Positions 1 through 542 of a stretch of DNA of 64,000 bases are shown piece by piece; within the stretch, counting starts at the first letter, position 1, and every line of letters starts with the position of its first letter. Both the position numbers and the translations under genes were made by a program. Where the stretch lies: assembly GCF_058153355.1 (NCBI RefSeq), contig NZ_CM177019.1; one strand, written 5' to 3'. The notes under the pieces are model-generated. The model did not search any database. It was not told where the DNA came from and saw nothing but the letters and a program-made list of their open reading frames with translations.

Positions 1-373
1 TATCGGAGAGAAAACATCTGCGGTATTGCTGGCTTATATCGGTCTGAAGGACCGCTTCGCCCATGCCAGACAGTTCGCCGCTTTTGCGGGTCTGACACCA
101 CGGCGTTATGAATCAGGCAGTAGTGTGAGAGGGGCAAGCCGGTTGAGTAAAGCCGGACATGTGTCGCTTCGCAGGGCGTTGTATATGCCTGCAATGGTAG
201 CCACCAGTAAGACTGAGTGGGGACGGGCGTTCCGCGACCGTCTGGCGGCTAATGGCAAGAAAGGAAAGGTGATTCTCGGCGCGATGATGCGCAAGCTGGC
301 ACAGGTGGCGTATGGCGTGCTGAAGTCAGGGGTCCCGTTCGATGCGTCACGGCATAATCCGGTAGCGGCGTAA
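1..373 (+). mobile_element. IS110-family transposase, C-terminal portion only (gene runs off the left edge of the window)
   Basis: Translation of 26..373 (...[40 protein letters not shown]...[24 protein letters not shown]...) has the conserved C-terminal helix-hairpin-helix domain pattern of IS110-family recombinases. The frame is open to position 1, so the M at 26 is internal. Confidence 0.7.
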
Positions 374-390
374 AAATCGCGGAAGGGATG

Positions 391-416
391 AAAAAAACAG
401 CGCCTGACGGCGCTGT
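391..416 (-). terminator. Hairpin with A-tract on the plus strand (U-tract when read on the minus strand); putative minus-strand terminator
   Basis: aaaaaaa(391-397) followed by acagcgcc-tgac-ggcgctgt (397-416); read on the minus strand the stem is followed by seven U. Confidence 0.4.
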
Positions 417-506
417 GTCTGGCATGCCTGCAATCTGGGAAACCGGGGTAGAAAAAAACTTGCAGGCCATAACAGTATCTACGTGATTCCTGCAATTTAT
501 TGAATT

Positions 507-542
507 TGTAGGCCGGATTAGGCGTTTACGCCGCATCCGGCA
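507..542. repeat. REP (repetitive extragenic palindromic) element
   Basis: tgtaggccggattaggcgtttacgccgcatccggca matches the classical E. coli REP consensus (GCCGGATGCGGCGTAAACGCCTTATCCGGCCTAC family). Confidence 0.7.

Follow-up and report, generated by a model that had tools for sequence, protein, structure and literature searches.

The first 480 nucleotides of the DNA analyzed here (a stretch of 64,000 nt, hereafter the window) are very probably the right-hand 480 bp of a copy of IS621, an IS110-family element of about 1,279-1,280 bp, lying between ridA and mgtA on an Escherichia coli-type chromosome. The start of the window falls inside the element, and positions 1-480 are the only part of it found anywhere in the 64 kb. 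IS621 of E. coli was reportedly described by Choi, Ohta and Ohtsubo in 2003. It is the element in which bridge RNAs were discovered, and both the bridge RNA system (Durrant et al. 2024, PMC11208160) and the structures of IS621 (Hiraizumi et al. 2024, PMC11208158) have been published. The original prediction, which was made from the sequence alone, had read the left edge of the window as an IS110-family element of the REP-targeting, bridge RNA-using kind, and in this it was right. It had also held that neither the identity of the element nor the position of its ends could be set from this window; this part has to be withdrawn, since the element can be named as IS621 and comparative data fix its right end at position 480. 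The element is thus the already known IS621 at its canonical target, with nothing anomalous about it and no functional difference indicated. The features of the locus are collected in Table 1.

Table 1. Features of the IS621 right end and its surroundings (positions in the window)
Feature	Position	Strand	Detail or basis
IS621 recombinase gene, 3' part	2-373	+	Residues 204-326 and stop codon; most of the Tnp domain (189-326)
Codon (TCA) of catalytic serine S241, motif RRYESGSS	113-115	+	Alignment to the 326-aa protein
IS621 right non-coding end (RE), 107 bp including the CT core	374-480	+	14 other copies; empty-site alignment
Terminator-like hairpin facing into the element	390-416	-	ACAGCGCC-GUCA-GGCGCUGU, then U7
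-35 hexamer TTGCAG of the circle-only promoter	460-465	+	17-nt spacer to TATTAT in the left end
Left donor half-site ACAGTAT (472-478) and core dinucleotide CT (479-480)	472-480	+	Terminus common to all copies examined
Right remnant ACG of the split Z2-type REP	481-483	+	AC is the right half of the 11-bp target ATCAGGCCTAC
Spacer between the paired REPs (TGATTCCTGCAATTTATTGAATT)	484-506		Weak Rfam match to REP-associated family ES036 at 490-510
Intact Y-type REP, orientation opposite to the split Z2-type REP	507-545	-	Minus strand GCCGGATGCGGCGTAAACGCCTAATCCGGCCTACA
mgtA	601-3297	-	898-aa ORF; labelled mgtA in syntenic genomes; 3' end faces the IS right end
Mg riboswitch (RF01056), full length, upstream of mgtA	3391-3506	-	123.9 bits

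The recombinase ORF is open at the left edge of the window and closes with a TAA stop codon at 371-373. Its translation matches Pfam PF02371 (Transposase_20, IS116/IS110/IS902) with E = 1.6e-21 and 76.9 bits, against a cut-off of 21.3, and its serine aligns with residue 241 of the C-terminal Tnp domain; the predicted C-terminal part of an IS110-family recombinase is therefore there. The agreement with the reference IS621 recombinase is nearly complete: 122 of 123 amino acids are identical to PDB entry 8WT6 ("IS621 transposase"; E = 7.3e-75), the one conservative change being L251 in the window for M251 in the sequence of the structure. Even closer is the intact, 326-aa, IS621-family transposase encoded at the same locus in strain N96, which is identical over all of its residues 204-326 (123/123), with six codon differences that are all synonymous. 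In the visible part, the ORF is thus that of a transposase and not a degenerate fragment. In a megablast search with window 1-600, the matching genes among 5,426 complete E. coli genomes carry the RefSeq label "IS110-like element IS621 family transposase". The limits of the Tnp domain (residues 189-326) are taken from the structural work, which identified Ser241 as the covalent nucleophile that forms a 5'-phosphoserine intermediate (Hiraizumi et al. 2024). The N-terminal DEDD RuvC-like domain (Pfam PF01548) is present in the relative's 326-aa protein, whose C-terminus is identical to that of the window; in the copy analyzed here it would lie to the left of the window. Two antisense ORFs, at 106-495 and 249-536, were taken to be chance ORFs within the coding region and the repeat.

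The right boundary of the element follows from three comparisons. In strain PT62, whose site between ridA and mgtA is empty, the sequence GCCTGATGCGCTACGCTTATCAGGCCTACGTGATTCCTGCAATTTATTGAATTTGTAGGCCGG... runs uninterrupted and corresponds to both flanks of the occupied site, with one CT at the join. Alignments of empty-site genomes to the window begin no earlier than position 479. Finally, all 14 other copies that we compared (four at the same locus and 10 encoding the same protein at other loci; 1,279-1,280 bp long, 11 loci altogether) have a left flank ending in ...TTATCAGGCCT, an element ending in ...ACAGTATCT and a right flank beginning with AC.... Together these place the end of the element at window position 480, with the CT core at 479-480. 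In N96, for instance, the left flank ...GCCTGATGCGCTACGCTTATCAGGCCT passes into the left end TGTATTATCC..., and the right end ...ATAACAGTATCT is followed by ACGT.... The junction in the window reads ACAGTAT-CT and then ACG, and the whole RE is identical to that of three of the copies at other loci (L019-L021). By the published cleavage position, strand exchange takes place after the T at 480 (Hiraizumi et al. 2024). As in IS621 of E. coli, the RE ends in ACAGTAT-CT and the insertion lies at ATCAGGC-CT/AC inside a REP. Elements of this kind insert at ATC(A/G)GGC-CT-AC in a REP, with a CT core at both junctions and no terminal inverted repeats, and the copy conforms to this, the right junction being seen in the window itself and the left junction and the uninterrupted REP in same-locus and empty-site genomes.

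The interrupted repeat is a Z2-type REP, GCCTGATGCGCTACGCTTATCAGGCCTACG, which is continuous in the empty-site genome and split after ...ATCAGGCCT in occupied genomes. This settles, in the affirmative, a check proposed with the original prediction, namely whether the insertion interrupts a REP. Across the target, the empty site of PT62 reads ...GCCTGATGCGCTACGCTTATCAGGCCTACGTGATTCC... with no break; in the window, CT/ACG is all that stands at the right of the junction, the left part of the repeat being outside. The published natural target of IS621 is ATCAGGCCTAC, and the target encoded by its guide is ATCGGGCCTAC, so that position 4 is A or G, respectively (Durrant et al. 2024). The REP that had been noticed beside the element is indeed present at 507-545, but it is not the target, which is the neighboring Z2-type REP. 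Extragenic, about 35 bp long and imperfectly palindromic, it is of the GCC(G/T)GATG...(C/A)TC(C/A)GGCCTAC type that often occurs in inverted pairs, and the REP-derived Rfam family naRNA4 matches in part at 511-547 (E = 2e-4; 37.9 bits, which is under the gathering score). Its would-be target on the minus strand is ATCCGGCCTAC, and we attribute the sparing of this REP to the C at position 4, where the targets of IS621 have A or G.

BIME-1/RIP-type REP pairs of E. coli consist of a Y REP, an IHF-site linker and a Z2 REP. The empty site has the same build: between two convergent genes, about 23 bp separate a Z2-type REP from an inverted Y-type REP. At the occupied locus, the IS breaks up the Z2 member. 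The spacer at 484-506 resembles the IHF-site linker and may correspond to it. Elsewhere in the window, a perfect natural target, ATCAGGCCTAC, lies unoccupied in a Z1-type REP at 14193-14203 (minus strand), so that the window holds at least one free IS621 target site; Y-type REPs with ATCCGGCCTAC recur at 10445-10455 and 14266-14276. The placement of the element near the 3' end of mgtA was correct in the original prediction (Table 1). At the other end of mgtA, the Mg riboswitch is found as expected for this gene, and relatives have an annotated mgtL leader peptide at the equivalent position.

The bridge RNA region of this copy is outside the window, and all that the visible non-coding end provides is the -35 box and the left donor half-site. 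When the RE of the window is joined to the left end of a copy that shares this RE, TTGCAG and TATTAT come to stand 17 nt apart; a promoter across the RE-LE junction is thus reconstituted at the sequence level, with its left-end half taken from a relative. In IS621, a sigma-70 promoter is reconstituted across this junction, with its -35 box outside the 22-bp minimal donor, and the source of the bridge RNA is the left end, upstream of the recombinase gene (Durrant et al. 2024). The left end is identical in N96, at the same locus, and in L019, whose RE is that of the window. It folds into stem-loops with internal loops and contains, with the guide roles as defined by Durrant et al. (2024), LTG ATCGGGCCT, RTG GTAG (complementary to CTAC), LDG ACAGTATC and part of RDG (...CAAG). 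The LDG matches window positions 472-479. No Rfam 15 family matched the left end of the N96 copy; there, in place of a curated model, the guide motifs and the near-identity to the published element served to recognize the bridge RNA. The RE of 107 bp and the LE of 191-192 bp in relatives add up to 298-299 bp, and the published RE-LE measures 298 bp (Durrant et al. 2024). In the length of RE and LE, in the junction promoter and in the left-end guides of the same-locus relatives, the locus fits the published model.

In the mechanism established for IS621 (Durrant et al. 2024; Hiraizumi et al. 2024), excision yields a circle, and the joining of RE to LE forms a sigma-70 promoter from the -35 box TTGCAG seen here and the -10 box TATTAT in the left end. 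This promoter drives a bridge RNA of about 177 nt from the left end, one loop of which (LDG and RDG) pairs with the donor junction ACAGTAT-CT-TG and the other (LTG and RTG) with a chromosomal target, ATC(A/G)GGC-CT-AC, in Z-type REPs. A recombinase tetramer, combining the DEDD RuvC-like domain with the Tnp domain and its Ser241, then exchanges strands beside the CT core. The target used here was the Z2-type REP of the convergent REP pair.

A minus-strand terminator hairpin had been predicted between the element and the REP. The hairpin exists, but its placement does not hold, since it lies within the RE. Read from 416 to 397, the stem has eight pairs, six of them G-C, with a 4-nt loop and then TTTTTTT, so that a terminator can be read on the minus strand only; the predicted free energy is -15.7 kcal/mol. 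The terminator scan returned two sites in 700 bp where 0.7 were expected, which taken by itself is weak evidence. More telling is that all 14 other E. coli copies of the IS621 family share this stem unchanged, as does a Citrobacter orthologue in which the surrounding RE has diverged. The stem being invariant among the copies, it gives no covariation signal, and a search of plasmids for diverged right ends that could provide one matched eight records, nearly all from E. coli and none of them diverged.

Related elements help to delimit what is particular to this right end. ISCro4 (PDB 9T56) and the IS621-like elements of Citrobacter belong to the same family and share the same architecture. The element of Citrobacter portucalensis (L022) encodes a protein 85% identical to that of the window. 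Its RE has diverged except for the identical hairpin stem, the -35 box (TTGCAGGC) and the terminal ATAACAGTATCT, and it too is flanked by AC. IS621 proper is clearly the nearer relative of the window copy. This orthologue and two more distant ones came from a protein search with the 123-aa fragment, which returned only partial proteins of up to 216 aa and no exact match. The latter two, from metagenomes (L023, 438-460; L024, 2041-2070), have 76% and 66% protein identity to the fragment and right ends of only about 8-22 nt, in which the stop codon is followed almost directly by ...AACAGTATCT and the flanking AC, with no hairpin. About 90 bp of the RE, comprising the hairpin and a separate -35 box, are therefore confined to the IS621/Citrobacter lineage. 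The targets of the element, being REPs, lie at the 3' ends of operons. On the most economical reading, the inward-facing hairpin would then protect it from antisense transcription, blocking host transcripts (here, read-through from mgtA) that would otherwise run antisense through the recombinase gene. That the stretch absent from the distant orthologues, between the stop codon and the -35 box and donor site and centered on the hairpin, is a lineage-specific insulation module is a tentative idea, and one that we hold to be rather unlikely.

The readings that compete with an IS621 right end differ in what they make of the 107 bp between the stop codon and the REP. The orientation of the hairpin would suit termination of mgtA, and the distant orthologues end 8-22 nt past the stop codon; on these grounds one could take the hairpin and everything up to the REP for host DNA, with the element ending soon after position 373. 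We give this practically no credence, as the hairpin and the entire RE move with the element, being present in every copy at the 11 chromosomal loci, whereas window bases 374-478, hairpin included, are entirely missing from the empty site. The empty-site alignment refutes the host-terminator reading, and the hairpin belongs inside the RE of IS621. In the IS1111 subgroup, the guide RNA lies downstream of the recombinase gene, and there are subterminal inverted repeats. A non-coding stretch of this length with a stable hairpin downstream of the gene might then hold the guide (seek or bridge) RNA of an IS1111-type element. Yet the relatives have their target- and donor-matching guide segments in the left end, the 107-bp RE has no 9-nt stretch matching the left half of the target, and the protein is essentially identical to that of IS621, whose bridge RNA has been mapped to the left end (Durrant et al. 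2024). Besides the -35 box and the donor half-site, the RE holds only a simple hairpin, and membership in IS1111 is exceedingly improbable.

A different doubt concerns the completeness of the IS621 copy. About 800 bp at its 5' side (the left end, the bridge RNA and the RuvC-like domain) are beyond the window, and that the copy in this genome is of full length and active is inferred from its relatives. It might instead be a truncated or defective relic, of which a 3' fragment survives or which has been disrupted: just 480 bp can be seen, and the protein search returned many partial IS621-family proteins, although most of these are from short contigs and were probably cut by contig ends. Against a relic stand the 123 visible codons, which are intact and differ from intact copies by synonymous changes only (up to four amino acids, when all of the intact copies are considered), and the four genomes with this RE-flank junction that were inspected, each of which has the full 1,279-1,280-bp element with its 326-aa ORF. 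The boundary of the window is, besides, arbitrary. Given the clear purifying selection on the visible part and the complete element in every inspected genome with the junction, we regard truncation or disruption as improbable, and a complete IS621 as the preferred reading.

Occupancy of the site varies among E. coli strains. No complete genome is identical to the window over positions 1-600; the best of the 5,426 is strain N96, with 98.5% DNA identity (megablast), which has at this locus an element of 1,280 bp with an intact 981-bp recombinase gene. The arrangement ridA-IS-mgtA with an intact 981-bp gene is also found in E2865, in CFSAN018748 and in an O158:H23 strain. An exact search with 76 nt of the contigs of one genome per species gave no match. 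We estimate that IS621 is present between ridA and mgtA in approximately 1,200 of the 5,426 complete genomes, on the order of a fifth, and in some genomes this is the sole place that matches the right-end query. The count is 1,210 when genomes covering at least 80% of window 381-600 are considered and 373 when the same threshold is applied to window 431-600, and an artificial empty-site query was covered to at least 80% in 4,678 genomes; as this number plus 1,210 exceeds 5,426, occupancy can be given only approximately. We suspect that the mismatch results from alignment trimming, caused by the diverged flank of the E2865-type allele, and from the REP-rich sequence.

The copies are not uniform, and same-site copies differ from each other by up to about 4%. 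Compared with the commonest variant at the locus (e.g., that of E2865), the window copy shows about 3-4% DNA divergence, with some of the changes forming a small cluster at 445-452 of the RE, and the 120-bp flank toward mgtA is about 9% different from that of E2865. Over its 480 nt, the window copy differs at three positions from copies at other loci of strain AP025751 (L019-L021), versus 14-20 positions from those that other strains carry at the ridA-mgtA site (L002, L004 and L005). Its being nearer to some copies from elsewhere than to some of those at its own site may reflect either independent, repeated insertions or conversion between copies. With the 9% difference just given, the 3' flank of mgtA likewise appears to be variable. 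Contigs that encode exactly the MgtA of the window have an empty site or a different spacer allele, without the IS. Such a third allele of the mgtA-ridA spacer, with neither the REP pair nor IS621 and next to a gene for the identical MgtA protein, was found at L006:6698-7263 (also in L008 and L009). In their place is about 560 bp of AT-rich inserted sequence; the 151-aa ORF in it combines an HTH_Tnp_1 (PF01527) N-terminus with a hydrophobic C-terminus, and the mgtA-proximal flank differs as well.

The locus behaves as the published model of IS621 predicts, and it has little importance apart from correct annotation: IS621 is the label that the element should carry, with position 480 of the window as its right end, and the hairpin at 390-416 should not be labelled as the host terminator of mgtA. 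It is also a clean natural illustration of target choice, in that the Z2 REP with ATCAGGCCTAC was used and the adjacent Y REP with ATCCGGCCTAC was spared. The one loose thread is the conserved, inward-facing hairpin of the RE, whose role is inferred. If it were indeed part of an insulation module, read-out from the 3' ends of host operons would be kept from running antisense across the recombinase gene, and neighboring genes such as mgtA would gain a new transcript 3' end.
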